The notes: generated by a model from the letters alone, not told the origin. Shown: positions 1-23,726, counted from the first letter of the stretch. The stretch is DNA of 24,000 nucleotides from Cenarchaeum symbiosum A (GCA_000200715.1 DP000238.1:1574849-1598848), one strand, 5' to 3'. A program made the numbers and translations.

Positions 1-2666
1 TTTGCGAGTATGCCGAGTACGCCCTTCTGGCCGTGCCGGGCGGCAAACTTGTCGCCTATCTCGGGTACCCTCATGTCACGGACCCTTATCTTGTACATTT
101 TTCCGCCCTCGTTGGACTGGGTCATTACCACAGTGTCGACGACCCCCGTCTCTGAGGGCCGCACGCCAATAGACGTGTCGCGCCTGTAGGGCCCCGAGGG
201 CTCAAACTCCTTGTACTCCTCCATGAACCGCGGCGGGCTCGTCTTGCCAATCAGTATGTCCCCGCCGAGAACGGTAGACTCGGATGCTATCACGCCGTCA
301 TCCTCGAGCAAACGGTACGACTTTTCGCCCTTGTACCCCCTTATGTTGTCCTCTGCGCCCGGGATCTCAAAGTTGTCGCGCATTCCTCCCGGGTACTGCT
401 TGGCCTCTGCGTCGTATATCCGGTAAAAGAACGTCCTTGCAAGGCCCCTGTCGACGGAAGACTTGCTGAGCACTATGGCGTCTTCGATGTTGTATCCGTC
501 AAACGGGAGCACCGCCACGACACAGTTCTGCCCCGCCGGCCGGTCCTCCAGTCCGAGCAGGCCCATGGCCCGGGTATTCACTATGGGCGTCTGCGGGTAC
601 AGCATAAAGTGCTGCCTCACGTACGTGCTCGTGTTCATCATCGGGGTGGAGAAGCCCAAGCTCTGCTTTGCCATGGCGGATTCATAGGTGTTCCTCGGCG
701 ACTGGTTGTGCTCTGGATATGGTATTATCGAGGCGCCCGCGCCCAGTATCGCTGATGGGAATATCTCGAGGTGTGTGTGCCCCTTGGCCTCTTTCTCGTC
801 GAGTGTCACATAGCAGTTCTCTTCTTCGTTTGCGTCTATCAGCTCGATGACTCCCATCCTCAGCAGGTCGTTCCACGAGAGCAGCTTGCTTGATATCTTG
901 TCCAACAGATCCTGGGTAAGCAGCGGCTTGCCGTCCTTTATTATTATCATGGGCCTAAGGACGCGCCCCGCGCTGCAGTTGACGTAGAGGCGCCTCGTCG
1001 CGCCGTCTTCGGCAGGCCTGTTGAATGATATGCTCACGTGGGGGTGTATCTTGGAGGACCTCCTGAGATCCCTCAGCGAATCTGCCAGGCCGCCGCCGTC
1101 CTTGTAGTATCCGATGAGCCTGCCGTCGACGAATATCCTCGTCCCTGTGGCCCTTGCGTCCTCCTTGGCGTCTGTAAAGTGGACGGTGCCCATGTCAAAG
1201 AGCTTTTCCGTTATCTCCTGGGAGGGCACGTGGACCGAGATTATCGCGGATAATGCCAGGTTCTTGACCAGCCCGCAGTTGGAGCCCTCCGGGGTCTCGC
1301 TTGGGCATATCCTCCCAAAGTGGGTGGCATGAAGGTCCCTTGCCTCAAAGTTTGGCTGCGTCCTGCTCAGGGGCGACTGGACCCTCCGAAGATGGCTTAT
1401 TGTCGATAGGTAGTTGGTCCTGTCAAGCAGCTGCGTCACCCCTACCCTGCCGCGGCCCCAGTTGCCTGTGGCTATTGCATTGTTGAGCTTGTCGGTTACG
1501 ATGCCGGGCCGTATGGCTGCCGCCACCGCGTGTATTCCCCGCTTCTGCCCGGACCTCTCCAGCTGGTACTTCATGTCGCGGACCAGGTTCCTAAACGCGG
1601 TCCGGAACAGGTCGGCTAGCATCTGGCCTGCGAACTTTATCACCTTGTTCCCATAGTGGTCCTTGTCGTCTGCAGGTATCCAGACAAGCTTGAGCTCCAG
1701 CAGCTTGCAAGTGGCCTCGCCGAGGAACTGCGCCTTTTCCTTTCTGTTCTCCGGATGCTTGCCAAGATGGGGCAGCAGCGACCAGTCAAGAAGGGTCTCG
1801 GCGCGCTTTATCTGGAATTCTTCGAGCATGCCCGGGGCTATCCTCTTGCTGATGTACACTATTGCATCCTTGGAGGTCTTTACCTCGCCTGCCTTCTCGA
1901 ATGATCCCTCCAGCTCGTTCTGTATGTCGTCGTTGAGCGACGCAGACGAGGCTATCTCCCTGTCGGATTCAAGTCCGAGCGCCTTCATTAGAGTAACCAC
2001 GGGGATATCGACGGGCGAGCCCGGTATCCTGACCACGATCAGCCCGTCGTTCTTCATTATCAGTTCGAGTTTTGCGCGGTAGCCCACTATCGACGAGTAG
2101 ACCTTGGCCTTGTAGACGGGGTTGCCGCCGACAGTCTCCTTGTCTACGATTATCTTGTTGTATGAAAGGTCCTCGAGGCCGACGACCACCCTCTCGGAGC
2201 CGTTTATGATAAAGTACCCGCCGGGGTCGTTGGGATCCTCCCCCTGCTCGATCAGCTTCTGGTCCGGCAGGTTGTGCAGAACACATGCGCTGGACTTTAT
2301 CATCGTCGGGATATCGCCTATATGCACAAACTTGGACTCTAGCGTCTTGCCGTCCTCGACGACGCTCGCCTCCATCATTACAGGCGCGGAATACGAGACG
2401 TTACGGAGCCTCCCCTCGGCCGGGGTTATGTACGTGATTGAGCCGTCGAGCTCCATCATCCGGGGCTTTTGCAGCTTGACCTTTCCCAGCTGGATCTTGT
2501 AGGGGTACTCTGCATTCTCTATCTCTATCTGGCCCTGCTCGTCTATGATGCTCTGCAGGCCGCGCTCGAGGAACTCGTCAAACGAGTTGAGGTGCTGCCT
2601 GGCTATGCCCTCCCTCCGCAGTATGTCCTGGATGACGGGCCAGCGCTTGTTTGCAGGATGTGCCAA
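1..2666 (-). CDS. rpoB: DNA-directed RNA polymerase subunit B, N-terminal ~888 codons (gene runs off the window start)
   Basis: The minus-strand frame is open from 2666 to the window edge. It is absent from the ORF track because it is truncated. My translation starts (TTG)AHPANKRWPVIQDILRREGIARQHLNSFDEFLERGLQSIIDE and reads ...RVPEIGDKFAARHGQKGVLGILA near position 1, both classic RpoB/Rpb2 motifs. The TTG at 2666-2664 abuts the rpoH stop (2669-2667), and no ATG or GTG lies before the conserved N-terminus. The 888 contiguous codons indicate an unsplit B subunit. Confidence 0.95.
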   Translation of the reverse strand, partial: MAHPANKRWPVIQDILRREGIARQHLNSFDEFLERGLQSIIDEQGQIEIENAEYPYKIQLGKVKLQKPRMMELDGSITYITPAEGRLRNVSYSAPVMMEASVVEDGKTLESKFVHIGDIPTMIKSSACVLHNLPDQKLIEQGEDPNDPGGYFIINGSERVVVGLEDLSYNKIIVDKETVGGNPVYKAKVYSSIVGYRAKLELIMKNDGLIVVRIPGSPVDIPVVTLMKALGLESDREIASSASLNDDIQNELEGSFEKAGEVKTSKDAIVYISKRIAPGMLEEFQIKRAETLLDWSLLPHLGKHPENRKEKAQFLGEATCKLLELKLVWIPADDKDHYGNKVIKFAGQMLADLFRTAFRNLVRDMKYQLERSGQKRGIHAVAAAIRPGIVTDKLNNAIATGNWGRGRVGVTQLLDRTNYLSTISHLRRVQSPLSRTQPNFEARDLHATHFGRICPSETPEGSNCGLVKNLALSAIISVHVPSQEITEKLFDMGTVHFTDAKEDARATGTRIFVDGRLIGYYKDGGGLADSLRDLRRSSKIHPHVSISFNRPAEDGATRRLYVNCSAGRVLRPMIIIKDGKPLLTQDLLDKISSKLLSWNDLLRMGVIELIDANEEENCYVTLDEKEAKGHTHLEIFPSAILGAGASIIPYPEHNQSPRNTYESAMAKQSLGFSTPMMNTSTYVRQHFMLYPQTPIVNTRAMGLLGLEDRPAGQNCVVAVLPFDGYNIEDAIVLSKSSVDRGLARTFFYRIYDAEAKQYPGGMRDNFEIPGAEDNIRGYKGEKSYRLLEDDGVIASESTVLGGDILIGKTSPPRFMEEYKEFEPSGPYRRDTSIGVRPSETGVVDTVVMTQSNEGGKMYKIRVRDMRVPEIGDKFAARHGQKGVLGILA

Positions 2667-3169: not shown

Positions 3170-3973
3170 ATGAATACACGTCTTTCGGCGCTTGCCTTGT
3201 CCGCGGTCTTGGTTGCGGGCTTGGGCATTTCGCCGATTTTCGCACAGCTGACAACGCCCATCTCGGTCTCGACGAGCATGCCTGTCTATGGCGCCGGCGA
3301 AACCGTTGTGGTGACTGGCGAGGTCAGGGAACTCCTGTCCGGATACCCGGTCTCGATTCAGGTCTTTGCACCAAACGGCAACCTGGTTAATGTAAACCAG
3401 ATCAACGTGGAGCCCGACAGGACTTTCACTGCTGAGATCTCAACAGGCGCAGGCTGGAAAGAAGGTTCGTACATGATCAAGGTAGTCTATGGAGGCGATG
3501 CCAGGTCTGCCGAGACCACGTTCGAGCTGGGAGCATCGGGCATCATTACGCCCAGCACACCTTCCGGACTGACCCAGAGGGTTGAAGGCACCGACTTCTC
3601 GCTAAGCTACACGATCACCGGCGGGAGCATTGTAAGCATAACACCCGATGTTGATGCCGCGTCCCTGATCATCGAGATCGACTCGACTGACGACGGCGTG
3701 CTGACGATCACCCTCCCGAGGGCGCTCATAGAGGCCGACAACGGCTTCCTGGTGCTGGTGGACGGGACGCAGGTGGAGTTTGATGAGAGCGAAACCGCAA
3801 CCGACAGCACCCTGACGATCGCGTTCCCGAATGGAGCAGAGACGATCGAGATCATCGGCACCATGGTGGTGCCAGAGTTCGGCACCATAGCGGTTCTGGT
3901 CTTGGCAGCGGCAATAGTCTCGATTATAGCCGTCTCGGCTAGGTCCAGACTCGGCATCATGCGTACATACTAG
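3170..3973 (+). CDS. Secreted protein with PEFG-type C-terminal sorting signal (paralog 1)
   Basis: Signal peptide MNTRLSALALSAVLVAGLGISPIFA/Q. C-terminus GTMVVPEFGTIAVLVLAAAIVSIIAVSARSRLGIMRTY, i.e. PEFG motif, hydrophobic helix and basic tail. It has its own TATA box and a downstream T-tract. Confidence 0.9.
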   Translation: MNTRLSALALSAVLVAGLGISPIFAQLTTPISVSTSMPVYGAGETVVVTGEVRELLSGYPVSIQVFAPNGNLVNVNQINVEPDRTFTAEISTGAGWKEGSYMIKVVYGGDARSAETTFELGASGIITPSTPSGLTQRVEGTDFSLSYTITGGSIVSITPDVDAASLIIEIDSTDDGVLTITLPRALIEADNGFLVLVDGTQVEFDESETATDSTLTIAFPNGAETIEIIGTMVVPEFGTIAVLVLAAAIVSIIAVSARSRLGIMRTY

Positions 3974-3979
3974 AGAGAG

Positions 3980-4000
3980 TTTCTTTTCTTTCATTTTTTT
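3980..4000 (+). terminator. Oligo-T archaeal terminator candidate
   Basis: TTTCTTTTCTTTCATTTTTTT follows the stop at 3971-3973 and includes a T7 run at 3994-4000. Confidence 0.5.
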
Positions 4001-4008
4001 ATATATAC

Positions 4009-4016
4009 ATAAATAG
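4009..4016 (+). promoter_or_regulatory. TATA box (ATAAATAG) for the second PEFG-tail gene
   Basis: The box centre is 25.5 nt upstream of the ATG at 4038. ACATAAATA (4007-4015) recurs upstream of the (PE)22 gene at 14383-14391 on the minus strand. Confidence 0.5.
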
Positions 4017-4037
4017 CCATGTGTTTTCCGTTGCTGT

Positions 4038-4901
4038 ATGAACGTACGCAACATGTACGCACTGGCAGCCCTTGTGGCGCTCGCCGGGACAGCATCAGTC
4101 CCGGTGCTGGCGCAGTTCGAGGAGCTGCCCCCCGCATGTCCTGACTGTGAAGGAGACGTCAGGGATCTGGCGCTGATGGACCGGCTAAGAGACGTTCCCA
4201 TCACCGTCTGGAGCGACAAGACAATGTACGGCCATGATTCTACAATCACTGTCAACGGACAGGTGGCCCATGTAAAGCCCGGCACCCCCGTCACACTGAG
4301 GGTGATAAGCCCCCTGAACAACTTGGTCAGTGTGGAGCAGATTGACGTCAACAGCGACGGCAGCTTCGCAACCGACCTTAGGGCGTCAGGTGATCTGTGG
4401 AAGTACGACGGCACCTATACCATAAGGGTCCAGTACGGCCAGGGCATAGACGACAAGCTTTTGATCAGCCTTGACGGCGGCATAACCGGCGATGGAGATT
4501 CACGCTCGGCATGCAGCAGTTCCGAGGTGGCGGCTGGAGACCAGTGCATACCGTTCCGCATAATGGGCGGCGATGTAACCGGCGCAGACATCAACGTAGA
4601 AGACAGGTCCGTTACCATCAGGATATCATCCAGCACGGGAGGCGAACTGATACTAAGCCCCTCCAGTGATACGATAGACGGGATCTACCTTGTGCTGGTT
4701 GACGGGCAGGAAGAAGATGCAGACATAGACGGCAACCGGGTCACAGTGACATTTCCAGCAGGCGCGACAGAAGTCGAGCTGGTCGGCACCTTTGTGATAC
4801 CCGAGTTTGGCACCGTGGCGGTTCTGGTCCTGGCTGTATCAATAGTCTCGATTATAGCCGTATCCGCGAGGTCGCGGTTTGGCATCATGCGGACATACTA
4901 G
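4038..4901 (+). CDS. Secreted protein with PEFG-type C-terminal sorting signal (paralog 2)
   Basis: Signal peptide MNVRNMYALAALVALAGTASVPVLA/Q. C-terminus GTFVIPEFGTVAVLVLAVSIVSIIAVSARSRFGIMRTY. Same two-domain layout as paralog 1. Confidence 0.9.
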   Translation: MNVRNMYALAALVALAGTASVPVLAQFEELPPACPDCEGDVRDLALMDRLRDVPITVWSDKTMYGHDSTITVNGQVAHVKPGTPVTLRVISPLNNLVSVEQIDVNSDGSFATDLRASGDLWKYDGTYTIRVQYGQGIDDKLLISLDGGITGDGDSRSACSSSEVAAGDQCIPFRIMGGDVTGADINVEDRSVTIRISSSTGGELILSPSSDTIDGIYLVLVDGQEEDADIDGNRVTVTFPAGATEVELVGTFVIPEFGTVAVLVLAVSIVSIIAVSARSRFGIMRTY

Positions 4902-4907
4902 TCCACA

Positions 4908-4920
4908 TTTCAGATTTTTT
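4908..4920 (+). terminator. Oligo-T terminator candidate
   Basis: TTTCAGATTTTTT lies just after the stop at 4899-4901, with a T6 run at 4915-4920. Confidence 0.4.
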
Positions 4921-4977
4921 CACATGCACACAAAACCGTGCCGCCGTGGCCCCGTCTGTAGCAAGGGAAATATACGA

Positions 4978-5823
4978 ATGATCAACAGGTGCAGTGTGCG
5001 GGTGATCCCATTCGTAATAGCCGCGGCGGTGCTGCTTGCGGTATTGTATGCACAGCCGCCCCAGTACGCGGAGGCGCAGGTGCAGGACTTTCGGCCGCCC
5101 CCTCCCCCCACCATGACCGTGAGGACGTCGGAGGGCATGTACGAGCAGGGCGACGTGGTGGTGATATCTGGCAGGGTGAGCACAGTCTTTGAGGGCGAGG
5201 TCACCATACAGGTATTTCTCGACACCACGCTAGTCGAGATAGACCAGCTGCCAGTGGCGCAGGACGGCAGTTATTCTGTCACGATAAACGCCGAGGGGAA
5301 CCGGTGGTCCAAGCCGGGCACCTACACGGTAAGGGCCACATACGGGGAGGACACCATCGAGACCACCTTCGAGTACGCGACAGCGCTAGTCATGACAGAG
5401 ACGACCAAGAGCTTTGAGGTCGGCGCCGGCGATTCCGGCACGTTTGATGTCCCGTACACGATAGTCGGGGGGACTGTCCAAAACATGTACATCGACCCGC
5501 CAAACCTCTCGCTTATTGTCATCATAGAGGCCGAGGGCAACGGCGCGCTGACAGTGGACCTTCCCAGGGATTGGATCGACTCCAAGGACCCCGGCGGGGC
5601 GGACGAGGAGTACATAGTGCTTGTGGACGGATCCGAGATCATCCACACGCAGGTGGTCCAGGACTCGGAGATCCGCAAGGTCAGGGCGGACTTTACAGAG
5701 GAGAGCACCGAGATCATCATAATAGGAACGGAGATAATCCCCGAGTTTGGCGCGGCCCTGCCGGCGCTCGCGGCAGCAGTTGCGGCAGCGGCTGCAATCT
5801 CAAGGCGCAAGCTAACAGTCTAG
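4978..5823 (+). CDS. Secreted protein with PEFG-type C-terminal sorting signal (paralog 3, divergent tail)
   Basis: The track start at 4879 overlaps the previous gene. The ATG at 4978 gives signal peptide MINRCSVRVIPFVIAAAVLLAVLYAQPPQYAEA/Q. The GTG at 4996 is an alternative start, since it lies ~25 nt from an AAATATAC box at 4968-4975. C-terminus IIPEFGAALPALAAAVAAAAAISRRKLTV. Confidence 0.85.
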   Translation: MINRCSVRVIPFVIAAAVLLAVLYAQPPQYAEAQVQDFRPPPPPTMTVRTSEGMYEQGDVVVISGRVSTVFEGEVTIQVFLDTTLVEIDQLPVAQDGSYSVTINAEGNRWSKPGTYTVRATYGEDTIETTFEYATALVMTETTKSFEVGAGDSGTFDVPYTIVGGTVQNMYIDPPNLSLIVIIEAEGNGALTVDLPRDWIDSKDPGGADEEYIVLVDGSEIIHTQVVQDSEIRKVRADFTEESTEIIIIGTEIIPEFGAALPALAAAVAAAAAISRRKLTV

Positions 5824-6977
5824 AATCCGTACTTTGCCCGGTACGGGGAGACCCGCCTGAGCTCGGCCACCGCCCGGGTCAGCGCGTCGACTGCCCCGTC
5901 GATCTCCTCGTCGGTATTGAATATGCCCACGCTGAGCCTCAGCGAGCCGTTGATCCGCTCCCGTGCAAAGCCCATCGCACGCAATACATGGGATTCCTTT
6001 TGTGTGCGGACCGAGCAGGCAGAGCCGGTCGATGCGGCTAACCCATACTCGTCGAGCTTGATGAGGAGATCCTCCCCGCTCACACCGTAAAAAGTAAAGT
6101 GAGCGTTGCCGGGCAGCCGCGATTCTTTGCTGCCGTTGTACTCTACATGGGTTATCTCGCCGAGTATTCTCTCGGCCAGGCGGTCCCTCATGCGGCGCAC
6201 GCGCGCCGCATCCTCCGTGAGCCTCTCGCGCGCCATCTCGCACGCCCTGCCAAAGCCCGCAATGGCCGCCACGTTCTCTGTGCCCGAGCGCATCCCCCGC
6301 TCCTGGCCCCCGCCGAGTATCAGCGGGTCGAGCTCCACCCCTTTGCGGACGTACAGGGCCCCCGCGCCCTTGGGCCCGTTGATCTTGTGCGATGAAAACG
6401 ACAGCATGTCCACGCCGAGCTCCGAGACGTCAAGTGGAACCTTGCCCGCGGCCTGTACAGCGTCCGTGTGAAATACGGCCCCCCGTTCGCGGCATATCCC
6501 GGCAATCTCAGAGATGGGCTGGATTGTGCCCACTTCATTGTTGGCAGTCATTACGGATGCATGGGATGTTCCGGGGCCCACGGCTTTTGCCATCTCGGCC
6601 GCGCGTACGATGCCGTCGTCGCCGGGGCCCACCGTGCTTGTCTCAAAGCCGCGGTCGCGGAGCCTGGCGCACGGCTCGAGGACCGCGTCGTGCTCTATCG
6701 AGGTGGTGACAAACCCGTTCCGGCCAGGCTCCCCCCGCGCGCCAAGAACGGCCATGTTGTTTGATTCTGTGCCCCCCGAGGTCAGGATGATCTCTTTTGG
6801 CGAGGCGCCGATTAGCGCGGCGGCCTGCTCCCTCGCATCATCGACCGCCCTCTCGGCGGTCCTGCCCTGGCGGTGTATCGACGACGGGTTGCCATAATCC
6901 CCCTCAAGATACGGCAGCATCGCCTCGAGCACCTCGGGCCTCATGCGCGTCGAGGCCGCATTATCCAGGTAGATCAA
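5820..6977 (-). CDS. Cysteine desulfurase, NifS/IscS-like (PLP-dependent, class V aminotransferase fold)
   Basis: N-terminus (TTG)IYLDNAAST, PLP-lysine motif SFSSHKINGPKGAG, catalytic Cys loop ASTGSACS. The 478-aa track ORF (to 7256) is an extension running through larE. The TTG at 6977 overlaps the larE stop (TTGA) and yields 385 aa, the normal size for this family. Confidence 0.88.
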   Translation of the reverse strand: MIYLDNAASTRMRPEVLEAMLPYLEGDYGNPSSIHRQGRTAERAVDDAREQAAALIGASPKEIILTSGGTESNNMAVLGARGEPGRNGFVTTSIEHDAVLEPCARLRDRGFETSTVGPGDDGIVRAAEMAKAVGPGTSHASVMTANNEVGTIQPISEIAGICRERGAVFHTDAVQAAGKVPLDVSELGVDMLSFSSHKINGPKGAGALYVRKGVELDPLILGGGQERGMRSGTENVAAIAGFGRACEMARERLTEDAARVRRMRDRLAERILGEITHVEYNGSKESRLPGNAHFTFYGVSGEDLLIKLDEYGLAASTGSACSVRTQKESHVLRAMGFARERINGSLRLSVGIFNTDEEIDGAVDALTRAVAELRRVSPYRAKYGF

Positions 6978-7768
6978 TCCGCCGCCACGTTGATCCCGCC
7001 GGGGCGGTATCCGAGCGGATCTACCGTCGCCGACTTGAAGCCTATCATGCGAAGCTTGGCATCTAGCTCGGCCAGCATACCGGAGAGCCTCGCCACATCG
7101 CCCGGCTCCACCTCTATGCTGGCCGCCCCGTCCATGTCGCGCACCCTGACCTGGGCCACGCCGGCCTCGCTCTTTACAAGGGATTCGCCCATCTCTATCC
7201 GTGCCAGCTTCTCGGCAGTCACCCTCTGGCCCCACGGCACGCGCGACGCAAGGCACGAATTGGACGGCTTGTCGTGGACGGAGATGCCCGCCAGCCGGGC
7301 CTCCCTTCTCACGTCTTCCTTGCGGAAGCCCGCATCGGCCAGCGGGCTGAGTATGCCACCGTCGCGCATCGCCGCTATGCCGGGCCTGTATTCCGACAGG
7401 TCGTCAAGGTTTGTCCCGTCAACTATCACCTTTACCCCGTGCTCTGCCGCGAGTCCTGCCATCCTGCCTGCCAGCTCCGTCTTGCAGTAAAAGCACCTGC
7501 GGCTGTCGTTGCGCACAAAGTCCGCGTTCTCCAGCTCGTCGTATGTAATCAGCATGTGCTGCATGCCTATCTCGCTGCAGACCCTCTTCGCGTCGGCCAG
7601 CTCGTCCTGTGCTAATGTCTTGTAGTCTGCTGTAACAGCAATCGCGCCGTCGCCGAGAGCCCTGTGTGCCGCGTACGCCACCAGCGCCGAATCCACGCCG
7701 CCGGAGAGCGCCACCATGACGCGGCCGCGGCCGGCAAACCATTCCAAGAGACCGTCCAGGCCGGTCAT
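6974..7768 (-). CDS. larE: LarE-like PP-loop ATP pyrophosphatase (sulfur insertase of nickel-pincer cofactor synthesis)
   Basis: PP-loop VALSGGVDSALV, RRCFYCK (C92-x-x-C95), DGTNLDD, and SNSCLASRVPWG (C172, corresponding to the LarE active-site Cys region). Its start overlaps the larC stop (ATGA) and its stop overlaps the desulfurase start. Confidence 0.8.
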   Translation of the reverse strand: MTGLDGLLEWFAGRGRVMVALSGGVDSALVAYAAHRALGDGAIAVTADYKTLAQDELADAKRVCSEIGMQHMLITYDELENADFVRNDSRRCFYCKTELAGRMAGLAAEHGVKVIVDGTNLDDLSEYRPGIAAMRDGGILSPLADAGFRKEDVRREARLAGISVHDKPSNSCLASRVPWGQRVTAEKLARIEMGESLVKSEAGVAQVRVRDMDGAASIEVEPGDVARLSGMLAELDAKLRMIGFKSATVDPLGYRPGGINVAAD

Positions 7769-8982
7769 TGTTTTTCCGCCCCGTCTATGCCGGCCCTTAT
7801 CATCTCATCTGCCTCCCGGAATGGCACGCCAAGCGACCGGGCCACCCTTCCCACTTCGTCGGATTCCACCTTGTAGGTGCCAGTGGCATCGTTTGTCTTG
7901 AACCTTACGGAGAACTTTCTGCCCCCGATATCCAGCTCGGCGCTGCGGTCCGAGCGCGGGGCGGTGAGCCTCCGCGACGAGCCCATCCTCACCCCGAGGG
8001 TGCCCGATTCTGCGACCAGCAGGCCCGCCAGGCGCTCTGCCAGCCGGTGCTCGCATATCACAGATACAAGGTGCGCCGGCCTCCCTTTCTTGGTCACCGC
8101 GGGCGAGACCGTAACGTCTAGCGCGCCCTTCTCCATGACAGAGTCTATCACATGGGCCATCAGCTCGCCCGAGGCGTCGTCTATGTTGGTCTCCAGGACT
8201 GCCACGCTGTCATGAAGCAGCCCTTCTGCAGCAGGACCGCGCACCACCTTTAGCACATTGGAGAACCCGTCAGGATCTGCGCTGCCGGCGCCGTATCCCA
8301 CGCCCTCCACCTCCATGGCCGGATAGAACCCGCTGCACGAGCCCGCAAGGCACCGCAGCATGCATGCTCCCGTCGGGGTCGCCAGCTCCACGCCCGCGGG
8401 CCCCCCGCAGATTGTTATCCCGGTCCCCCGGAGGATCTCCAGTATTGCGCCAGCAGGGTTCGAGGTGGTCCCGTGCGAGAACGTTACAGTGCCGCCCCCC
8501 ACCGCAACAGGCGTGCAGACAACCTCCTCGTCAAACGCGCTCAAGTCCTCGAGTGCTATTGCTGTGCCCAGTATGTCGACGACAGTGTCAAGGCTGGCCG
8601 CCTCGTGCAAGTGCACAGAGTCCTCCGGCTCGCCGTGTATGCGCGATTCTGCCGATATCAGCGCGTCAACAGACGACTCTGCGAACCCTGCCGCGCGCCC
8701 CGGCAGGCCTATCTTTTTGCACGCATTTGTTATGCATTCGCGCACCTCCGACGCGCGGCGCGCGTGCACTCCCCCTTCCAGGCGCAGGACCATGCCGGTC
8801 GCCTCGGTGCCGTGCCGCCGCGTCTTCTCAAAGCTGATCTCTACTATGCGCTCGCCCCCCAGGGGCCCCGCCGACCTGACGCCGTCTGATACGGCCGTCG
8901 CGCTTGCGCCCATGTCGACAAGTGACGAGAGCATCATGTCGCCGGATATGCCCGCGACCTGGCAGTCTATAACCAGAACCAT
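7765..8982 (-). CDS. larC: LarC-like nickel insertase (DUF111 family)
   Basis: The ATG at 8982 gives MVLVIDCQVAGISGDMMLSSLVDMG, the family's N-terminal motif. Further motifs: VHLHEAASLDTVVDILG, ELATPTGACML, LETNIDDASGE, VTKKGRPAHLVSV, ESGTLGVR. The track ORF start at 9069 adds 29 Pro/Arg-rich residues and is rejected. Confidence 0.85.
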   Translation of the reverse strand: MVLVIDCQVAGISGDMMLSSLVDMGASATAVSDGVRSAGPLGGERIVEISFEKTRRHGTEATGMVLRLEGGVHARRASEVRECITNACKKIGLPGRAAGFAESSVDALISAESRIHGEPEDSVHLHEAASLDTVVDILGTAIALEDLSAFDEEVVCTPVAVGGGTVTFSHGTTSNPAGAILEILRGTGITICGGPAGVELATPTGACMLRCLAGSCSGFYPAMEVEGVGYGAGSADPDGFSNVLKVVRGPAAEGLLHDSVAVLETNIDDASGELMAHVIDSVMEKGALDVTVSPAVTKKGRPAHLVSVICEHRLAERLAGLLVAESGTLGVRMGSSRRLTAPRSDRSAELDIGGRKFSVRFKTNDATGTYKVESDEVGRVARSLGVPFREADEMIRAGIDGAEKQ

Positions 8983-9004
8983 GCGCCATCGGCGGCCCAA
9001 AATG

Positions 9005-9014
9005 CATATAAATT
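9005..9014 (-). promoter_or_regulatory. TATA box for larC-larE-desulfurase operon
   Basis: The minus strand reads AATTTATATG. The box centre is 27.5 nt upstream of the larC ATG at 8982, implying a leaderless transcript. Confidence 0.5.
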
Positions 9015-9076
9015 GTCGCGGGCGGCCGCGCGGAGACAGCGGTCCCGGCGGGGGCGGATTCCGGTGCATGCACTAC

Positions 9077-9090
9077 ACTAGATTTAATTA
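9077..9090 (+). promoter_or_regulatory. BRE/TATA region of mdh (ACTAGATTTAATTA)
   Basis: The TTTAATTA centre is 26.5 nt upstream of the ATG at 9113. The 9-mer ACTAGATTT starts exactly 36 nt before the start codon, the same as at larB. Confidence 0.55.
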
Positions 9091-9112
9091 CTGATTGCCG
9101 CGGCCGCGCGGC

Positions 9113-10021
9113 ATGATAACCATAATAGGGGCCGGAAAGGTCGGCGGCGACGCAGCCATGTTCTGCGCGCTAAGGAGGCTCGACAGCGAGATTCTACTGC
9201 TCGACATAGTAGAGGGGCTGCCGCAGGGCGAGGCCATGGACATAAACCACATGCTCGCAGAGCAGGGGATAGACACGGAGGTCCGGGGCTCCAACGACTA
9301 TTCCGACATGGAGGGATCCGACATAGTGGTGGTGGTCGCCGGCGCCGGCAGAAAGCCGGGCATGACCAGGATGGACCTGCTCAAGATAAACGCAGGGATA
9401 GTAAAGGGGGTCGTCGAAAAGGTAAAAGAGCACGCCAAGGATTCCATGATAATCCCAGTTACAAACCCCCTTGATCCCATAACCTACATAGCATACAAGA
9501 CGTCCGGGTTTGAAAAAAACCGCGTCTTTGGCATGGGAGGAATGCTGGACCTGTCGAGGTTCAGGCAGTTCATACACGAGGCGACGGGCTACTCCCGGGA
9601 TTCCATCAGGGCTCTAGTCATGGGCGAGCACGGCGAGAACATGCTGCCCCTGCCGAGGTTCTCGACGGTCTCGGGGATACCCCTGCTGTCCCTTATATCC
9701 GCGGAAAAGGCAGCCGAGCTGGTCCGGGATACCAAGAAGGTTGCCGCCAAGGTGATAGAGCTCAAAGGGGCGACGGTCCACGCCCCGGGCAACTCCATAT
9801 CGGCCATGGTGGAATCCATAGTGCGGGACAAAAAGCAGGTGATCCCTGTATCTGCATACCTTGAGGGGGAGTACGGGCACTCTGGCGTTACCATAGGCGT
9901 GCCTGCAGTCATAGGCAGAAAAGGTGTCGAAAAGATAGTGGAGCTTGACCTTGACGGGGCCGAGAAGGAGGCGTTTGACAAGGGCGTTGCAAGCGTCAGG
10001 GACGCGGTATCCGGCGTCTGA
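9113..10021 (+). CDS. mdh: Malate dehydrogenase, LDH-like family
   Basis: [12 protein letters not shown] Rossmann motif. [14 protein letters not shown] has Arg at the substrate-discriminating position, which is Gln in LDHs. [20 protein letters not shown] and the MGEHGENM catalytic His are present. The TTG at 9095 in the track is a 6-codon over-extension. Confidence 0.9.
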
Positions 10022-10033
10022 CTAGATTTTTAT
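10021..10033 (+). promoter_or_regulatory. BRE/TATA region of larB (ACTAGATTTTTAT)
   Basis: The ATTTTTAT centre is 27.5 nt upstream of the TTG at 10057. ACTAGATTT starts exactly 36 nt before the start codon. The box directly follows the mdh stop (10019-10021), and its T5 run could also terminate mdh transcription. Confidence 0.5.
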
Positions 10034-10056
10034 CGGAAAATACAGGTGGCCAAATA

Positions 10057-10860
10057 TTGGAGCTCGACGAGATCCTCGAATCGCTTGCGGCAGGAAGGAT
10101 GGATTCAGCAGAGGCCAGGAGGCTGCTCTCGCTGTATTCCATAGAGAAGATGGGCGAGTTTGCAAAGTTCGACGCGGGCAGAAAGAACCGCAGGGGGATA
10201 CCCGAGGTGGTATACGCAGGCGGCAAGCAGCCAGTAGAGATAAGGGAGATAATCACGGGAGCCCTGAACAGCTCGGATTCTGTCCTGGTATCCAGGATAC
10301 GCGCAGACGACCTGCCTGATATAATGAAATTTGCAGGGGAGGCAGGCCTGCGCACTGACGAGGGAAGAAACTCGTCGTCTGTGCTGTTCTTTAGGAATCC
10401 GCCGCCAGAATACCCCGGAAAGGTGGGGATCATCTGCGCAGGAACCTCGGATATCGGCATAGCAGAAGAGGCCCGCCTCATGTGCAGGGCGATGAACTGC
10501 GGGAGCATCTGCAGCTATGATGTCGGGGTGGCCGGCATGCACAGGCTGTTCCCCGTCCTAAAGGAGATGGTGGCAGGCGATGTGGACGTGATAGTAGCGG
10601 TGGCCGGGATGGAGGGGGCGCTCGCCACGATAGTCTCGTCGATGGTGGACCTGCCGGTGATCGGGGTGCCAAGCTCCGCCGGCTACGGGTACGGAGGTGA
10701 TGGAATAGGGGCCCTTGCGGCCATGCTGCAAAGCTGCACCCTCGGGGTATCAGTAGTCAACATAGATAACGGGATAGGGGCGGGCGCTGTGGCTGCAAGC
10801 ATATGCCGCCGGGTCCGGCTCAGGGGCGGCGCGGAGCCGAGCGCAGATCCGCGCCCGTAA
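10057..10860 (+). CDS. larB: LarB-like (PurE/AIR-carboxylase-related) pyridinium-3,5-biscarboxylic acid mononucleotide synthase
   Basis: Motifs RRGIPEVVYAGGK, IICAGTSDIGIAEEA, DVGVAGMHRL, VAGMEGALATIVSSMVDLPVIGVPSSAGYGYGG. The TTG start is supported by the conserved N-terminal helix ILESLAAGRMDSAEARRLL and by promoter spacing. Confidence 0.85.
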   Translation: MELDEILESLAAGRMDSAEARRLLSLYSIEKMGEFAKFDAGRKNRRGIPEVVYAGGKQPVEIREIITGALNSSDSVLVSRIRADDLPDIMKFAGEAGLRTDEGRNSSSVLFFRNPPPEYPGKVGIICAGTSDIGIAEEARLMCRAMNCGSICSYDVGVAGMHRLFPVLKEMVAGDVDVIVAVAGMEGALATIVSSMVDLPVIGVPSSAGYGYGGDGIGALAAMLQSCTLGVSVVNIDNGIGAGAVAASICRRVRLRGGAEPSADPRP

Positions 10861-11279: not shown

Positions 11280-12857
11280 TTGGCCGGCAAACGCGTGGTC
11301 CTCACAGCTGATCGCAGTCTGATGACGAACTACAGGGGGAACTTTCTCTATGGGTTTATCGCATGCGGCCCCTACGAGGTGCTGCCCGAGTGGGTCTTTG
11401 ACAAGGTCTTCTGCCCCGCAGTCGAGACGGACCCCCAGACAGGCGAGGCCAAGGTCGCCCAGGTGGGCCTGAGAAGGGTCCAGGGGGCCCTCCGCCAGGG
11501 CTACAAAAAGGAGGAGGTCTTTGTCGCCAACCCGGATTACATAGACAAGCCGATAGGCCCCGACACAAAGGTTGTCGGGATAAACGTGATGGACCCGCTG
11601 GGAATGGCGCCGGTCACCACGACCATGTCGCCTGAAAAGCTCTCCTATGTGGCCATGAAGTTCAAGAGGCTCTGCGCCAGGCTGATACAGCTGAAGAAAA
11701 AGTACGACTTCAAGGTGGTCATAGGCGGCAACGGCGCCTGGGAGCTGGCAAAGCCCGACAGGATGAAGATCCACGGGATAGACACTGTCGTCATAGGCGA
11801 GGCCGACGAGCTGGCAATGGACCTGTTTACCGACCTTGAAAAGGGCGACGCGCCGGAGCTGATGCACTGCTTTGTAAAGAACATACAGAACATACCGGTA
11901 ATAGACGAGCCGACGGTAAACTCGCTGATAGAGGCGATGAGGGGCTGCGGCAGGGGCTGTGACTTTTGCGACGTGAACAAGCGCTCAAAGAAAGACCTCC
12001 CCCCGGACAGGCTGCAAAAAGAGGCCAAGGTCAACCTCGACTATGGATTTGATTCAATCTGGCTCCACTCTGACGAGATGCTTTTGTACGGGTGCGACAA
12101 CCGCGACTTTATACCAAACAGGGACGCCATCACCGATCTCTGGAAGGGCCTCAAGGGGCTTGGCGCCAACTTTATCGGGACCACCCACATGACATTCTCT
12201 GCGGTGGCGGCGGACCCGGAACTGATGCACAACATAGCCACCATCAACCGGCAGCACGAGAACAACAGGTGGCTATCAACCAACCTTGGAATAGAGACCG
12301 TCGCGCCGGACTTGGTAAAAAAGCACCTCGGCGTCAAGACAAGGCCGTTTGCGCCGGAGGAATGGGGCAGCGTGGTCAGGAAGGGCGCCGAGATAATGAA
12401 CGAGAACCACTGGTTCCCTGCTGCGACAATAATCATCGGGTGGCCCGACGAATCCCCGGCGGACGTGCAGTACACGCTCGACATGGTGACAGATTTCAGG
12501 GCCATGGATTTCAGGGGCCTGGTGGCGCCGCTGCTCTACCAGGACTTTAGCGAAAAGAACTCTATGCACTTTGGCAACCTCAACGAGGCGCAGTTTACCT
12601 TGTTCTGGAAGTGCTGGGAGAACAACCTCAAGGTGATAAACGACATCATACCGATAATACTCCGGAACAAGACCTACGGCCCGCCGATGAAGCTCTTCAT
12701 GTACGGGATAATCAAGGCTGGCACCTGGGCGATAATGAGATACCTCAGGGGCCTCTGCAAGGACCTATTCAACGGCAAGATGCCCGACGAGATAGTCGAG
12801 AAATACGCAAGGAGCAGGTCGGTATCCGCCCCCAAGATAGAGACCAAAAAGCTCTGA
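11280..12857 (+). CDS. Radical SAM enzyme with N-terminal Rossmann-like (B12-binding-like) domain
   Basis: CGRGCDFC is the CxxxCxxC radical-SAM cluster motif, in EAMRGCGRGCDFCDV. The N-terminal ~200 aa (VVLTADRSLM..VVGINVMDPLG..KVVIGGNGAWELA..IDTVVIGEAD) resemble the accessory domain of class-B-type radical SAM enzymes. TTG start; the nearby ATG at 11263 is out of frame. Confidence 0.8.
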   Translation: MAGKRVVLTADRSLMTNYRGNFLYGFIACGPYEVLPEWVFDKVFCPAVETDPQTGEAKVAQVGLRRVQGALRQGYKKEEVFVANPDYIDKPIGPDTKVVGINVMDPLGMAPVTTTMSPEKLSYVAMKFKRLCARLIQLKKKYDFKVVIGGNGAWELAKPDRMKIHGIDTVVIGEADELAMDLFTDLEKGDAPELMHCFVKNIQNIPVIDEPTVNSLIEAMRGCGRGCDFCDVNKRSKKDLPPDRLQKEAKVNLDYGFDSIWLHSDEMLLYGCDNRDFIPNRDAITDLWKGLKGLGANFIGTTHMTFSAVAADPELMHNIATINRQHENNRWLSTNLGIETVAPDLVKKHLGVKTRPFAPEEWGSVVRKGAEIMNENHWFPAATIIIGWPDESPADVQYTLDMVTDFRAMDFRGLVAPLLYQDFSEKNSMHFGNLNEAQFTLFWKCWENNLKVINDIIPIILRNKTYGPPMKLFMYGIIKAGTWAIMRYLRGLCKDLFNGKMPDEIVEKYARSRSVSAPKIETKKL

Positions 12858-12978: not shown

Positions 12979-13302
12979 CTAGAGCTTTTCTATGGCGATG
13001 TCCGCTATTGTATTGCGCGTGGGCGTGAGTGATACAAAGTAGCTCTTGTCCGCCCTCTCGATCGTCTCCACCTTTTTGTGGCTCATGGTGGCCAGGTCGA
13101 ACTCGTATATGCCGGGCGCAAGCTCCCCCTTTGCGTATATCATCAGGTAGGATTCCCCCGTGCTCGGGCTGAGCGGTATGAACGACATCACATAGCCCTT
13201 GTACGAGCCGACCGGCATGGTATTCTTCATGGGCGGCGCGGCCGAGGCCAGGAACATAAAGACCTCGTCGATGGTGGCGAACTCTTCATACTCTATATGC
13301 AT
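12979..13302 (-). CDS. Hypothetical cytoplasmic protein (107 aa)
   Basis: Clean ORF with genome-typical composition (MHIEYEEFATIDEVFMFLASAAPP...). It has its own TATA box with the centre 25.5 nt upstream of the ATG. No signal peptide and no recognised family. Confidence 0.6.
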   Translation of the reverse strand: MHIEYEEFATIDEVFMFLASAAPPMKNTMPVGSYKGYVMSFIPLSPSTGESYLMIYAKGELAPGIYEFDLATMSHKKVETIERADKSYFVSLTPTRNTIADIAIEKL

Positions 13303-13361: not shown

Positions 13362-14354
13362 TCAGGCGCGGCGGACGGCCCTTGACCGGAGGTAGCCACC
13401 GGTCTTTATGCCCACCAGTGCGGGCGCCGCCACGTACATCCCAAGGTTGAGGGCTATAACGGCCATGCCGAGTCCCAGCACCTGCTGCTCCGAGCCGTCC
13501 TCGGCCAGTGTCATTATTGATAGCGTGGCCAGCATCGGCGTAACTGCCGCCCTGACCATCTCGCGGAATATTGGGCTCTCCCTCTCAAGGTCCGCCACTG
13601 CGGGCGAGAATGCATAGTATACGGTGCTAAACGCGCCCATGAAGGACGAGCCTGATTCTGTCGACATCAGCGTGTTGTCCCTTATCTCCCGGAGGTACTG
13701 CACCTGCGGTGCAAGCTCCGAGCCGTACGCTGCAGTTGCGATCAGGCACCCGCCTCCGCGTCCTGAGTCACGCTCGGGGACGCAGCTGCCGTCCTGCAGA
13801 ATGGTGCCGGCCCCGCATTGTACCTCAGGTTCAGGCTCCGGTTCTGGCTCGGGCTCTGGTTCAGGTTCTGGCTCGGGTTCGGGCTCCGGCTCGGGCTCTG
13901 GTTCAGGTTCTGGCTCGGGTTCCGGCTCTGGCTCGGGCTCTGGTTCTGGTTCCGGCTGTGCAGCCGCCCCGCCCAGATATTCAAAGAAGCCCACATGGCT
14001 CTGGGCTCCATATTGGACCTTGATCTCATAGTCACCACCCTGCTTCCACTGCGGGCCCCCGGCCACCAGGGTCTTCTCATACGAGCCGTCCGACCCCGGT
14101 ACGATCTGGTCGATGCCCACTATTGTGCCGAGGGGATCGACGATTATTATGGTGACGGCCTGGCTATAGTCGCCCAGGGTCTTTATCTGTCCTGATATTG
14201 TAACCGTATCCTTGTCAGAGTAGATGGGCTTGTCCGTTATAATCGAGATGGGCAGCCCGGAAGCGCCGGTCTGTGCGGCCACCGGCGCGGCCATGCCGTA
14301 TGATAGTATCGATGCGGCCAGAATAGCCAATGCCAGCCTACCGGACGTTTTCAT
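13362..14354 (-). CDS. Secreted/anchored protein: shared N-module + (PE)22 linker + Cys-motif C-terminal domain with hydrophobic tail
   Basis: Signal peptide [28 protein letters not shown]. The N-module is homologous to the PEFG-paralog N-modules. Next come 22 Pro-Glu repeats, then [12 protein letters not shown], then [28 protein letters not shown]...YYAFSP. The C-terminus has two hydrophobic stretches and an RSRAVRRA tail. Confidence 0.88.
13824..13955 (-). repeat. Hexanucleotide-periodic coding repeat, 22 x (CCN GAR) = (Pro-Glu)22
   Basis: Counted unit by unit from the sequence. Synonymous codons vary between units. There is a 35-nt exact internal duplicate at 42-nt offset (13846-13880 = 13888-13922). 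Confidence 0.95.
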
Positions 14355-14415: not shown

Positions 14416-17400
14416 TCATGTGCGGATCAATCCCCTTCCGGCAAGAAACTCCATCGACTGCAAAAACTCGTCGTCTGTGATCATCCCGTCAGCCCACCAG
14501 CGGGCGCTGTCCCTTGTCCAGTCCGGCACGCGCTGCAGCCCCTCCCCCGCGGGCACATCCACCACCCCGGTCCTGGCAAGGTATTCCAGCCCGTCGAGAA
14601 ACTCGCCGTCTGATATGATGCCGCCGGACCACCACCGGGCGCTGTCCCGCACCCACCCGGGTATCCGCGGTGCATCCAGTGTAAACGAGGCGGAGCCCAC
14701 GTGCTCCCCGAGATACTCTACATCGGCAGTGTATTCCCCGGGGGGCGACTCGTGGCCGAGCATTAGCACGGCCCTGTACCTGCCCGAGTCCGTTACGGAG
14801 ATGCCAAACGTGCTGACGGAACCATCAGGCGAGTTTAGAAATATGGAGACAGGCTCGCCCCTTCTCTGCCCCGCAAGCGAGCCCTCTACTGTAACCTCCG
14901 CGGTTCCCCCGTATGCAGGCTGCAGCAGCGTCCGGGGGTCGGCAGCAGGGGGCACCTCGCCGGACCTGGGCTCCGGGGATGCGCCTGCCTGCTGGGATGC
15001 GCCGGCCTGCGGCGGTGCGCCAAGCCCGAATATGTTGGGGTTGCCCGATGAATCCCTTGCGTCGTGATACCTTGCATCAATGTTGCCGCCGGCAGGCGAG
15101 ATCAGCCTGTCCCCGTCCTTGCTGCATATCCATGACGGCATCTTGAAGCTGCCCTCGAATATCCCGGTGCCGGGCCCAGTCTCCACCAGCGAGAAGCCGC
15201 TTGCCGCAAGCCCCCCGTGCTCTACACCATCGACAGTGCAGCGCCTGTACCTTTCGCCGTTGATTATAACCTCCAGCAGGATCCCGCCGTCTGGCGACCC
15301 CACCGTGTCCACATACGGGGACGCGGGATCGTTTACAGTCCCATAGACCTCCAGCGTATCGTGGCTCCTGTTCAGGTCCGGATCCTCGAGTATTATGGTG
15401 ACCGGCCTGCCGAACCCGTAGCTGTTAGAGTCGGTCCTGACGCTGCCCGAGTGCACTTCGGCCTCGCGCGCCTCCGACTGCCCGGTGGATATGCCCGTCC
15501 TGTCAAGATCAGAGTAAGTTATCACCACGTCGTCCATGGCCCTGCCGCCGCCCAGGAACCTGACGTCCTCGTCTATCGTGCGCAGCGAAGATACAAGGCC
15601 TGGGTCGCCCGTGCCGCCGGGCCCCGGCACGACATACTCGAGCGTCCCCGTGAATACGCCCGGCGAGTCCCGCTCCTCTTCAAGCTCAAACCTGTACACT
15701 GCGTTGTTGACATCCCTGCCGTTTTGTTCCCCAAAGGAGAAGAGATCCAGGATGATAGGCAGCGGCCCCTCCAGCCCCGATGGAGCGGCCCCCCCAAAGT
15801 CCACCACCATATAGGCAGTCCCCGACGAATCGGCGGCTGATGCTGCAGCATCCTCATCTATCTGTACAAGGCCGCGCGGGGACCCAAGGCCTTCTGCCAG
15901 CAGTACACCCGACGGGTCCGCGGGATCCCCAAAGGCCAGGTGGACAGAGGCCCTGCCCAGTGCCCTCCCCATCGAGGTAAAATCATAGTTGAGCCAGTTG
16001 CTCCCTTGGTTATCGGATACCAGCAGGGACCGCAGTGCGCCTGAAGAATACCCCGTCTTTATCGAGAGCCCCTCTGTCCCCGCGGGGACGCCGTCTACAA
16101 CAAGCCGCCCCGAGCCGTCTTTCGCCTGTCCGTGCCCTGCCCGCTCGCCGGTGGCCGGCCCCCGGGAGCCAAAGAACGATACATCCGAGGCCCGCTCGAG
16201 TGTAAGCGGGCTGCCGATGTACATTGTTGGTAGGACGGACGATGCGCGGTCGGCCCCGAGGCTGTCCCGCTCCCTGGAGCTGGCGTCCTGGTCCGCGTCT
16301 GTTACTATAACGTCCGCCCTCGTGCCGGGCCGCGGCACGCCATCCCGGTATTCAACAGAAATAGACGCATCGGTCGGGCCCGTGGGCACCGAGGCTGCCT
16401 CGTCGTTGTACCGTATGGATCCCGCGAGGCCCCTGGGCGCGTCGGGGCCCGTCCCTATTACGGATGTTGACGACGAATCATAGCTGACAAAGACGCCCGA
16501 GCTTGGGCGCGTCTCGACCAGTGTGACTATCCCCCCGAACTCGTTAATCCCGTCGGTAACCGAGACATCCGGCTGGTGGCGGTTTGTCTTTAGGACCAGC
16601 ACCCCGCCGGGGTCCACCTCGAGCCGGCCGTTGTCCTCAAAGCCTAACCGCCCGAGGCTCCCCTCAAGGTCGACCAATCCCGGGCCCCCGTTGCCGGCGT
16701 CCGAGCCCCTGTCAGTATAGGCCTGGTAGAACACCCCGCTGGATGCAAACGTCCACGAGTCCTCGTCTGTAGGATCCTGGTTGAGCTGCATGTCGTGCAC
16801 AGTAACAAAGACCTCCGCCCCCGCCGGATACGTGGCCCTGTCAAGCTCGACGGATATTCCCTCCATCTCGCCGTACTCGATATCCTCCTGCTGAACGCCG
16901 CCCGCCCTGTTGTACTTTACCTCCACGTCGCGAAACGAGAAGAGCTGTATAATCGGCCACATATCCGGATCAATTCCTATCTGGCCCGGCGGTGCGCCCG
17001 ACGCCGAGCTCGGGGAGCTGGCCCTTCTGACCACATTGTTGATGACAGGGCCGTCAGCTGATCCCGTGCACTCGCCCAGCGGGCCCTGCCCGTCGGAGGC
17101 GCCCTCCAGGCCCCCCCGGGGGACGGCAACAGCCTCCGTGTCAGAAAAGTCCGCGCCCAGAACGCCTGCTGCAGTATCGGGCCCGCAGAACTCGCCAAAG
17201 TCCAGGCTCTCGCCTGCCGCTCCGATTGCGGCCTGGTCTGCCGCCCTTGCAGCCCCCGCATGCGCAAAGTACGCATACCAGGCTCCGTCAGAAGACTGCA
17301 CCATCCGCAGGTCCCGGCCGTTTACCGTCACGTCAGGCTCCCCCACGGTGCCGCTAGTATCCGATATTTCAGTATCCCGCACGACCACCTCGATTACCAT

Positions 17401-19882: not shown

Positions 19883-20383
19883 ATGCGCAAGGCCGCCCTC
19901 ATGCTGACGGTCGTGGGAGGGATCATGGTAGCCGGGATAGCACTCTCGTTCTTCGGCTCCTCGATAGTCGTGGACAGCCTAGTGCAGGCCACCGCGAACA
20001 TAGGCGGGGGGGACGAGATGGAGGTCAGCGCAAGGCTAGACCCCGGCGTAAGCGGGGAGGGCTTTTACGTCGTCCAGACGATGCAGTTTGAAGAGGGCAT
20101 GGTCCGGGCCTCCGTCAAGGACCCCTCGGGGGCGGAAGTGGCAGGCGGAATGGTCGGATCCGATTCCCACCAGGAGCAGTTCGATCTGAGGGGCGGCGGA
20201 AACTATACCCTGGTAATAGAGAACGGAGGGGGCCAGTCTGATGTGGTGGGCGCCATCGGGCACGTGCCCGGCGAGGCCATTGTGGCAGTCGGGGTGACGG
20301 GATCCTACCTGTTGATAGCGGGCCTCGTGGGAATGGCGGGCCTGGCAGTATACATAGTAAAGAGCAGGAACCGCCCTAGTTGA
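19883..20383 (+). CDS. Hypothetical bitopic/hairpin membrane protein (N- and C-terminal TM helices, ~110-aa external domain)
   Basis: MRKAALMLTVVGGIMVAGIALSFFG (TM1), then a Gly-rich beta-like domain, then AIVAVGVTGSYLLIAGLVGMAGLAVYIV (TM2) and KSRNRPS. It has its own promoter. No family recognised. Confidence 0.65.
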   Translation: MRKAALMLTVVGGIMVAGIALSFFGSSIVVDSLVQATANIGGGDEMEVSARLDPGVSGEGFYVVQTMQFEEGMVRASVKDPSGAEVAGGMVGSDSHQEQFDLRGGGNYTLVIENGGGQSDVVGAIGHVPGEAIVAVGVTGSYLLIAGLVGMAGLAVYIVKSRNRPS

Positions 20384-20678: not shown

Positions 20679-20681
20679 GTT

Positions 20682-23703: not shown

Positions 23704-23726
23704 CAGGCACACCCGCCAGTACGGGA

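Follow-up and report, generated by a model that had tools for sequence, protein, structure and literature searches.

Gene content and organization of the lar locus

A 24-kb window of the Cenarchaeum symbiosum A genome (GCA_000200715.1, DP000238.1:1574849-1598848; "the window" refers throughout to this whole stretch, and positions are counted from its first letter) contains larB, larC, and larE, three genes predicted to function in biosynthesis of the cofactor nickel-pincer nucleotide (NPN), together with genes for a cysteine desulfurase (termed nifS here) and a malate dehydrogenase (mdh). The five genes, with their predicted products, are as follows:

5820..6977, minus strand: class-I (NifS/IscS-like) pyridoxal phosphate (PLP) cysteine desulfurase, 385 aa, TTG start (Aminotran_5, NifS model)
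6974..7768, minus strand: LarE, ATP-dependent PP-loop enzyme for sulfur insertion, [4Fe-4S] CXXC-C type, ATG start (TIGR00268)
7765..8982, minus strand: LarC, CTP-dependent nickel insertase with fused LarC1 and LarC2 domains, 405 aa (PF01969, NCBIfam)
9113..10021, plus strand: NAD-dependent, lactate dehydrogenase (LDH)-like L-malate dehydrogenase (Mdh), 302 aa, ATG start (NF004863)
10057..10860, plus strand: LarB, nicotinic acid adenine dinucleotide (NaAD) carboxylase/hydrolase yielding the mononucleotide of pyridinium-3,5-biscarboxylic acid (P2CMN), 267 aa, TTG start (NF033503)

These genes form two divergent units, with larC-larE-nifS on the minus strand, larB on the plus strand, and mdh between larC and larB. 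An earlier reading of this DNA (the original prediction) had named all five products and had described a divergent layout around an LDH-like mdh; every gene lies where that reading had placed it, the Lar and Mdh proteins score above curated cut-offs, and the coordinates and strands bear out the layout.

Translation of larC starts from the ATG at 8982, giving the N terminus MVLVID that is common to its homologues; the 478-aa and 434-aa open reading frames (ORFs) of a mechanically generated list are over-extended, and the starts of the desulfurase and LarC were refined. Adjacent genes of the minus-strand unit overlap: the larE ATG runs into the larC stop (ATGA), and the desulfurase TTG start at 6977 runs into the larE TGA stop (TTGA, read directly from the sequence). 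Each overlap spans 4 nt, which argues that larC, larE, and nifS are translationally coupled.

Predicted functions of the encoded proteins

LarB matches the equivalog model NF033503 with 227.4 bits (cut-off, 175) and the PurE-like AIRC domain PF00731 with 62.6 bits, and it aligns over its full length to Lactobacillus plantarum LarB (PDB 7MJ0; E = 5e-44), with MLQSC of the window protein opposite MLNSC. This cysteine motif, MLxSC, is found in 67 of 69 related LarB sequences. The cysteine of MLNSC in the L. plantarum enzyme is the active-site Cys221, which adds to C4 of NaAD.

LarE scores 258.8 bits against the equivalog TIGR00268 (cut-off, 150) and matches L. plantarum LarE (PDB 5UDQ/6B2O) with an E value of 3e-29. 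Its PP-loop ATP-binding motif is SGGVDS, the general form of which (SGGxDS) is kept in 84/85 homologues, and it also possesses CFYC and SNSCLASR motifs that are conserved in relatives. In the alignment, a serine stands opposite residue 176 of the L. plantarum protein (Cys176), and the third cysteine is displaced to position +1. A CXXC-C motif in Thermotoga maritima LarE binds a [4Fe-4S] cluster, and that enzyme turns over catalytically with sulfane sulfur supplied by IscS (Chatterjee et al., PMC9283937). Judged by its motif and by the offset of the third cysteine, the window LarE is a predicted member of this [4Fe-4S]-dependent CXXC-C subclass.

LarC, the sequence of which matches a C. symbiosum A protein with 100% identity, is recognized by PF01969 (342.7 bits) and by the NCBIfam models for LarC1 (145 bits; cut-off, 90) and LarC2 (102 bits; cut-off, 50), and it aligns to the cryo-EM structure of Moorella thermoacetica LarC (12BI) with an E value of 4e-45. 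Histidines H116, H124, H126, and H170 align to histidines of 12BI and are invariant in 10 sequences from ammonia-oxidizing archaea (AOA). In M. thermoacetica LarC, H108, H116, H118, and H160 are essential for activity (PMC13510736), and we read the four window histidines as their probable counterparts, a correspondence derived from the motifs IHG, HxHE, and SHG since the numbering of the PDB chain is offset.

The motifs of all three Lar proteins are near-universal across roughly 70 to 85 homologues, those of Nitrosopelagicus included, although the proteins themselves are only 45 to 65% identical; that the motifs persist despite such divergence points to purifying selection on function. This pattern bears on the possibility that the lar genes are leftovers from the loss of LarA, or that they have been recruited to some other role (such as making a different thiocarboxylated pyridinium product). 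The patchy occurrence of LarA among AOA, set beside the wide distribution of larBCE, agrees with the presence of LarA in an ancestor and its loss at a later time, but catalytic motifs kept in nearly all homologues are not what relict genes would be expected to show. The Nitrosopelagicus genome, moreover, is highly streamlined, and dead genes would not persist there. We regard relict or repurposed genes as very improbable.

The product of mdh scores 386.8 bits against NF004863 (cut-off, 283), and its best PDB matches are all malate dehydrogenases (7AOB; E = 7e-90). It has a dinucleotide-binding motif of the GxGxxG type (GAGKVGG) and an RKPGMTR motif, present in 68 of 69 homologues, that we read as holding the oxaloacetate-specifying Arg102 position. 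By these features, Mdh is a predicted canonical, NAD-dependent, LDH-like malate dehydrogenase. Mdh was also considered as a user of NPN in its own right, a role that we reject as unsupported in light of its GAGKVGG motif and its close kinship to ordinary malate dehydrogenases of known structure.

Coupling of larE to a cysteine desulfurase

The protein encoded downstream of LarE has the class-V aminotransferase fold (Aminotran_5, 265 bits), and its best NCBIfam model is NifS (TIGR03402), for which its 469 bits fall below the equivalog cut-off of 530.75; scores against two IscS models are likewise below threshold (379 versus 548, and 367 versus 643). By fold and motifs, it is a predicted class-I cysteine desulfurase that is assignable to neither the NifS nor the IscS equivalog. 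Both S.HK, which holds the PLP lysine, and the catalytic motif GSAC are found in all homologues compared (68/68).

A nifS gene directly follows larE in 63 of the 72 informative loci. To our knowledge, the mechanism in which a non-sacrificial LarE is fed by IscS has so far been seen only in vitro, with heterologous Escherichia coli IscS; the translational coupling of larE to a desulfurase gene, kept in about 60 species, provides independent genomic support for it.

Conservation of gene order

Scanning a genome collection with a LarC alignment recovered 80 species-level loci (referred to by L numbers where they need to be told apart), whereas a single LarC protein used as the query recovered no relatives; the window proteins served as tblastn queries for annotating the loci. 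Of 65 informative AOA loci, 63 have the order larB<-mdh | larC->larE(->nifS). When all loci with enough upstream sequence are counted, mdh adjoins larC in 63 of 68, the exceptions being those of two rearranged Nitrosopumilus genomes (L040 and L051) and three from Bathyarchaeia. In Nitrosopumilales, the extended order rSAM<-larB<-mdh | larC->larE->nifS (rSAM, radical SAM gene) is near-universal, and it can be seen independently in the Pfam-labelled gene calls of four long contigs. The arrangement larB<-mdh | larC->larE is also found in two loci of the Nitrososphaera type (L079 and L081), where Mdh identity is 64 to 65%, but these are flanked by ribosomal protein genes (L18, S5, L30, and L15), unlike the neighbors in Nitrosopumilales. 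Bathyarchaeial loci L083 to L085 have larB | larC->larE without mdh.

Whether the proximity of mdh to the lar genes is conserved was a question raised with the original prediction, and its recurrence at this frequency, including in the differently flanked Nitrososphaera-type loci, shows that it is no strain-level coincidence. As judged from this distribution, the layout is at least as old as the ancestor that Nitrosopumilales share with Nitrososphaera-type AOA. The presence of mdh between larB and larC across AOA, and its absence from the cluster in Bathyarchaeia, argue that mdh was inserted once in the AOA lineage and was then kept. One might speculate that the arrangement goes back to a hydroxyacid dehydrogenase/racemase module in an ancestor, from which LarA has since disappeared.

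Two Nitrosopumilus sp. chromosomes (L040 and L051) are the only AOA loci in which larC-larE-nifS occurs without upstream mdh and larB; in L051, a distant radical SAM paralogue (32% identity) is situated upstream of larC instead. Small lineage-specific ORFs have been inserted into the divergent larC-mdh spacer of L079 (5133-5705, plus strand), L081 (9384-9947, plus strand), and L004 (9759-9962, plus strand): those of the Nitrososphaera-type loci encode ~190 aa with no Pfam match, and that of the Nitrosotenuis locus encodes a DUF1059 protein.

Putative promoters and transcription units

Three AT-rich elements lie upstream of the genes of the cluster:

8999..9014, minus strand: TATA-like box TTTATATG (minus-strand reading), ~30 nt upstream of the larC ATG; putative larC-larE-nifS promoter
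9078..9090, plus strand: TATA-like box CTAGATTTAATTA, located 33-35 nt 5' of the mdh ATG; predicted to act as the promoter of mdh
10022..10036, plus strand: CTAGATTTTTATCGG, directly 3' of the mdh stop, with a T-run beginning 30 nt ahead of the larB start; predicted to act as the promoter of larB

AT-rich boxes at a fixed distance from the start codon are typical of the TATA boxes of leaderless archaeal mRNAs, and oligo-T tracts terminate archaeal transcription. Each of the three elements has equivalents in relatives. A GAATTTATAAGCA / CATATAAATT box is conserved in the larC-mdh spacers, and RRRTTTAATTA precedes mdh in 71 of 74 loci, in 57 of them exactly 33 nt before the ATG. Downstream of mdh, where the spacer to larB has a median length of 34 nt, a run of at least five T residues occurs within 25 nt of the mdh stop in 58/66 loci, and in 56 of the scored loci the distance from the beginning of the T-run to the larB start is 30-31 nt. 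The CTAGATTTTTATCGG element may possibly serve as the oligo-T terminator of mdh as well.

Within the 24 kb, the box CTAGATTT is matched at just two positions, 9078 and 10022, both of them 35 nt ahead of a start codon. The chance expectation is 0.27 matches, and two were reached in 1 of 100 shuffles. The promoter architecture that the original prediction described as shared between mdh and larB is therefore real insofar as both genes possess this box, but what they possess is best read as two separate, generic archaeal TATA-like boxes, each at a fixed distance from a leaderless start, which give no evidence of co-regulation. Because mdh and larB each have their own box at a fixed distance, co-transcription is not required, and the two genes are probably separate, head-to-tail transcription units as opposed to an operon under one signal. 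We considered a co-transcribed mdh-larB operon as well; with a T-run and TATA-like box conserved at a fixed 30-31 nt before larB, such an operon is probably not required.

These observations affect how much can be read into the retention of mdh. The recipient of NPN might be a protein other than LarA whose function is linked to the malate/oxaloacetate node, which would explain why mdh has stayed in place since the AOA ancestor: the larB-mdh | larC-larE core is kept between Nitrosopumilales and the Nitrososphaera type while all flanks differ, mdh is missing from the cluster of Bathyarchaeia, the nearest relatives outside AOA, so that mdh was gained once and kept, and non-LarA clients of NPN have been postulated independently for cyanobacteria (PMC11796402). 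Adjacency without co-transcription is, however, weak evidence of a functional link, and in compact genomes with such tight mdh-larB spacers gene order can be held by inertia. That adjacency can be incidental at the level of orders is evident from the radical SAM gene next door, and no candidate client emerged. A client at this node that accounts for the retention of mdh is, in our estimation, unlikely.

LarA and the client of the cofactor

The window contains no larA, as the original prediction had stated: tblastn with L. plantarum LarA (a query verified as identical to PDB 5HUQ) detected no LarA-like sequence (threshold, E ≤ 1) in any of 88 sequences, namely the window and 87 related loci, searched within ~10 kb, and Pfam/NCBIfam scans of the window ORFs detected no LarA (PF09861/Lar_N). 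Published surveys point in the same direction. Kerou et al. (2021; PMC8397731), whose data set included C. symbiosum A, reported LarA only in the sediment AOA clades NP-theta, NP-delta, and NP-iota; two NP-alpha genomes are also listed with a COG3875 protein in their tables. In a second survey, just 3 of the 13 Nitrososphaerota have COG3875 (PMC11770544, Table S1).

Lar genes had been noticed in this group before. Kerou et al. (PMC8397731) list larA, larB, and larC in sediment AOA genomes, with larB and larC as the maturation system, and NCBI already names AOA homologues LarC, such that the view (also part of the original prediction) that NPN metabolism had gone unexamined in AOA is only partly true. 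Our own literature searches found nothing that joins LarC or LarE to Nitrosopumilus, or LarC and nickel to AOA. More broadly, Gatreddi et al. (2024; PMC11796402) note that larB, larE, and larC occur without larA in about 15% of genomes and postulate NPN-binding proteins other than LarA, and Haloferax has been flagged likewise for lar genes without larA (PMC8305020). Both the puzzle of larBCE without larA and the existence of lar genes in AOA (Kerou 2021) are thus already known, and the window locus is a further, well-conserved example; the increments made here are the conserved coupling of larE to a desulfurase and the AOA-wide insertion of mdh.

The original prediction had gone on to propose that NPN serves a LarA-family 2-hydroxyacid racemase (of D/L-malate, for example) that is encoded elsewhere in the genome and acts with the adjacent Mdh. 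Several observations speak for this idea: mdh lies inside the lar cluster in 63/65 informative AOA loci, which come from two orders and differ in their flanks; the largest group of LarA proteins is that of the malate racemases, which archaea have, too (PMC11770544); and some sediment AOA carry an unlinked LarA, among them L006, which has the same larB-mdh-larC layout. Set against them are the separate promoter-like boxes of mdh and larB, the T-run after the mdh stop, and the nature of Mdh itself, a canonical NAD-dependent protein with the Arg102-type motif and the housekeeping enzyme of the tricarboxylic acid (TCA) cycle. Since LarA is reported to be restricted to a few AOA clades, with COG3875 in 3/13 genomes and nothing resembling LarA near any of the 88 loci, a LarA-type malate racemase that partners Mdh is quite unlikely in C. 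symbiosum.

We consider it likely that the locus encodes an intact set of NPN biosynthesis proteins, arranged around an ordinary mdh, in which a [4Fe-4S] LarE is fed by an IscS-type desulfurase. The term "orphan" fits the set because the cluster has no linked LarA and the lineage is reported to be without this protein. In the predicted pathway, LarB would carboxylate and hydrolyze NaAD, forming P2CMN; LarE of the [4Fe-4S] CXXC-C type would activate P2CMN with ATP and insert two sulfurs, forming the mononucleotide of pyridinium-3,5-bisthiocarboxylic acid (P2TMN), and would be recharged by the persulfide of the translationally coupled cysteine desulfurase; and LarC would insert nickel into P2TMN in a CTP-dependent reaction.

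Several points weigh against an orphan, desulfurase-fed NPN set of this kind. NPN synthesis in AOA is a prediction from genes, and the probable absence of LarA from the C. symbiosum genome as a whole is taken from published comparative genomics. No nifS follows larE in three Nitrosopelagicus loci (L018, L022, and L032), the NP-theta locus L006, L075, L079, or Bathyarchaeia; because L006 and the three Nitrosopelagicus loci retain larB-mdh | larC-larE, a desulfurase encoded in cis is dispensable in some lineages. The desulfurase, with its sub-equivalog scores, could also be a general-purpose sulfur donor. Finally, a "frozen neighborhood" alone does not fully account for the long retention of mdh within the cluster.

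If an orphan NPN set is indeed what these genomes carry, AOA might make the cofactor for an enzyme that is no LarA homologue. With the lar set retained even in Nitrosopelagicus loci, and joined to mdh ever since the AOA ancestor, this client may have its place at the malate/oxaloacetate node or close to it; we advance this tentatively, at somewhat less than even odds. Non-LarA users of NPN are a question raised by the groups that study the cofactor, and the locus offers a tractable lead: AOA would be useful for finding a client, having small genomes, a lar set that is seemingly near-universal and highly syntenic, and cultured strains. Few archaea, in either ocean or soil, are as abundant as AOA. 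A non-LarA client would imply an unrecognized nickel-dependent hydride-transfer step in AOA core metabolism, and, were NPN truly needed, nickel would become a trace-metal requirement of marine nitrifiers beyond urease.

Comparison with known lar systems

(i) The larA(MN)BCDE operon of L. plantarum encodes the same three families and shares with the window the MLxSC cysteine of LarB, the PP-loop of LarE, and the histidine cluster and CTP domain (LarC2) of LarC. The window cluster differs in having no larA, larD, or nickel transporter genes, in encoding LarC as a single fused ORF (versus frameshifted LarC1/LarC2 in L. plantarum), in its cluster-binding CXXC-C type of LarE (versus a sacrificial, single-cysteine LarE), and in the splitting of its genes into two divergent units around mdh.

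(ii) T. maritima LarE (PMC9283937) resembles the window protein in its CXXC-C motif, with the third cysteine one residue off L. plantarum Cys176, and in the availability of a class-I desulfurase as the sulfane-sulfur donor. In T. maritima, however, desulfurase genes are far from larE, whereas in the window the desulfurase start overlaps the larE stop and the pairing recurs in 63/72 loci. This pairing, which was not reported in PMC9283937, gives genomic support to a predicted sulfur relay from the desulfurase to LarE.

(iii) The orphan larB-larE-larC sets of cyanobacteria and haloarchaea (PMC11796402; PMC8305020) are similar to the window in that the NPN genes are complete, no LarA homologue is present, and another client is implied. 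For the set from cyanobacteria, synthesis of functional NPN has been demonstrated (PMC11796402). The AOA loci differ in lineage (Nitrososphaeria), in the conservation of a housekeeping mdh inside the cluster, and in that their activity is predicted.

(iv) Sediment AOA of the NP-theta, NP-delta, and NP-iota clades (PMC8397731) have the same larB-mdh | larC-larE layout, as seen in L006. This locus is from the metagenome-assembled genome NPMR_NP_theta_1, in which larC (NPMRTH1_1580009) and larB (NPMRTH1_1580011) carry tags two apart. Those genomes differ in carrying an unlinked LarA-family gene, whereas C. symbiosum and most other AOA are reported to be without one.

Remaining content of the window

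The window has a GC content of ~60%, which, like its PEFG-CTERM surface proteins, agrees with an origin from C. symbiosum; it contains no tRNA genes, and an Rfam scan of it produced no matches. Beyond the lar cluster, two genes mark its surroundings:

3-2666, minus strand: rpoB, partial
11280-12857, plus strand: B12-binding-type radical SAM protein, 525 aa, with CGRGCDFC

Between rpoB and the cluster (3170-5823, plus strand) are genes for three tandem paralogous surface proteins, each of which ends in a PEFG-CTERM sorting signal (TIGR04296); a PEFG-CTERM array is likewise present between nifS and rpoH/rpoB in related Nitrosopumilales. On the other side, ORFs in the 420-bp gap between larB and the radical SAM gene have no family matches.

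The radical SAM protein is 80 to 89% identical across Nitrosopumilales and 74 to 76% identical in Nitrososphaeraceae/Nitrosocosmicus (L086, 10001-12024; L087, 2941-4945), making it far more conserved than the Lar proteins; its sole PDB match is a weak one to RimO (E = 0.004). In both orders it is accompanied by a convergent ORF of ~107-112 aa (12979-13302, minus strand, in the window). We considered and rejected this gene as a member of the lar system, since it adjoins larB only in Nitrosopumilales and has another location in Nitrososphaerales.

Farther along, a gene at 13362-14354 (minus strand) encodes a secreted protein with an (EP)n linker of ~50 residues and a CFI-box-CTERM domain (NF041770, 78.7 bits), and it is followed by the gene for a 1039-aa surface protein with no family match (14416-17535). 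At 17558-19766 (minus strand), a ZIP-like metal transporter (weak ZupT match) adjoins a two-domain multicopper oxidase (weak NirK-like similarity); relatives have a cation-efflux (CDF) gene near this pair, and none of these genes is nickel-specific. The window ends with a co-directional trio (20376-23994, minus strand) that consists of a small ORF resembling winged-helix regulators, a protein with a VWA domain, and an ATPase of the AAA (MoxR/chelatase-like) type, and the same trio is present in the Nitrosotalea locus L003.

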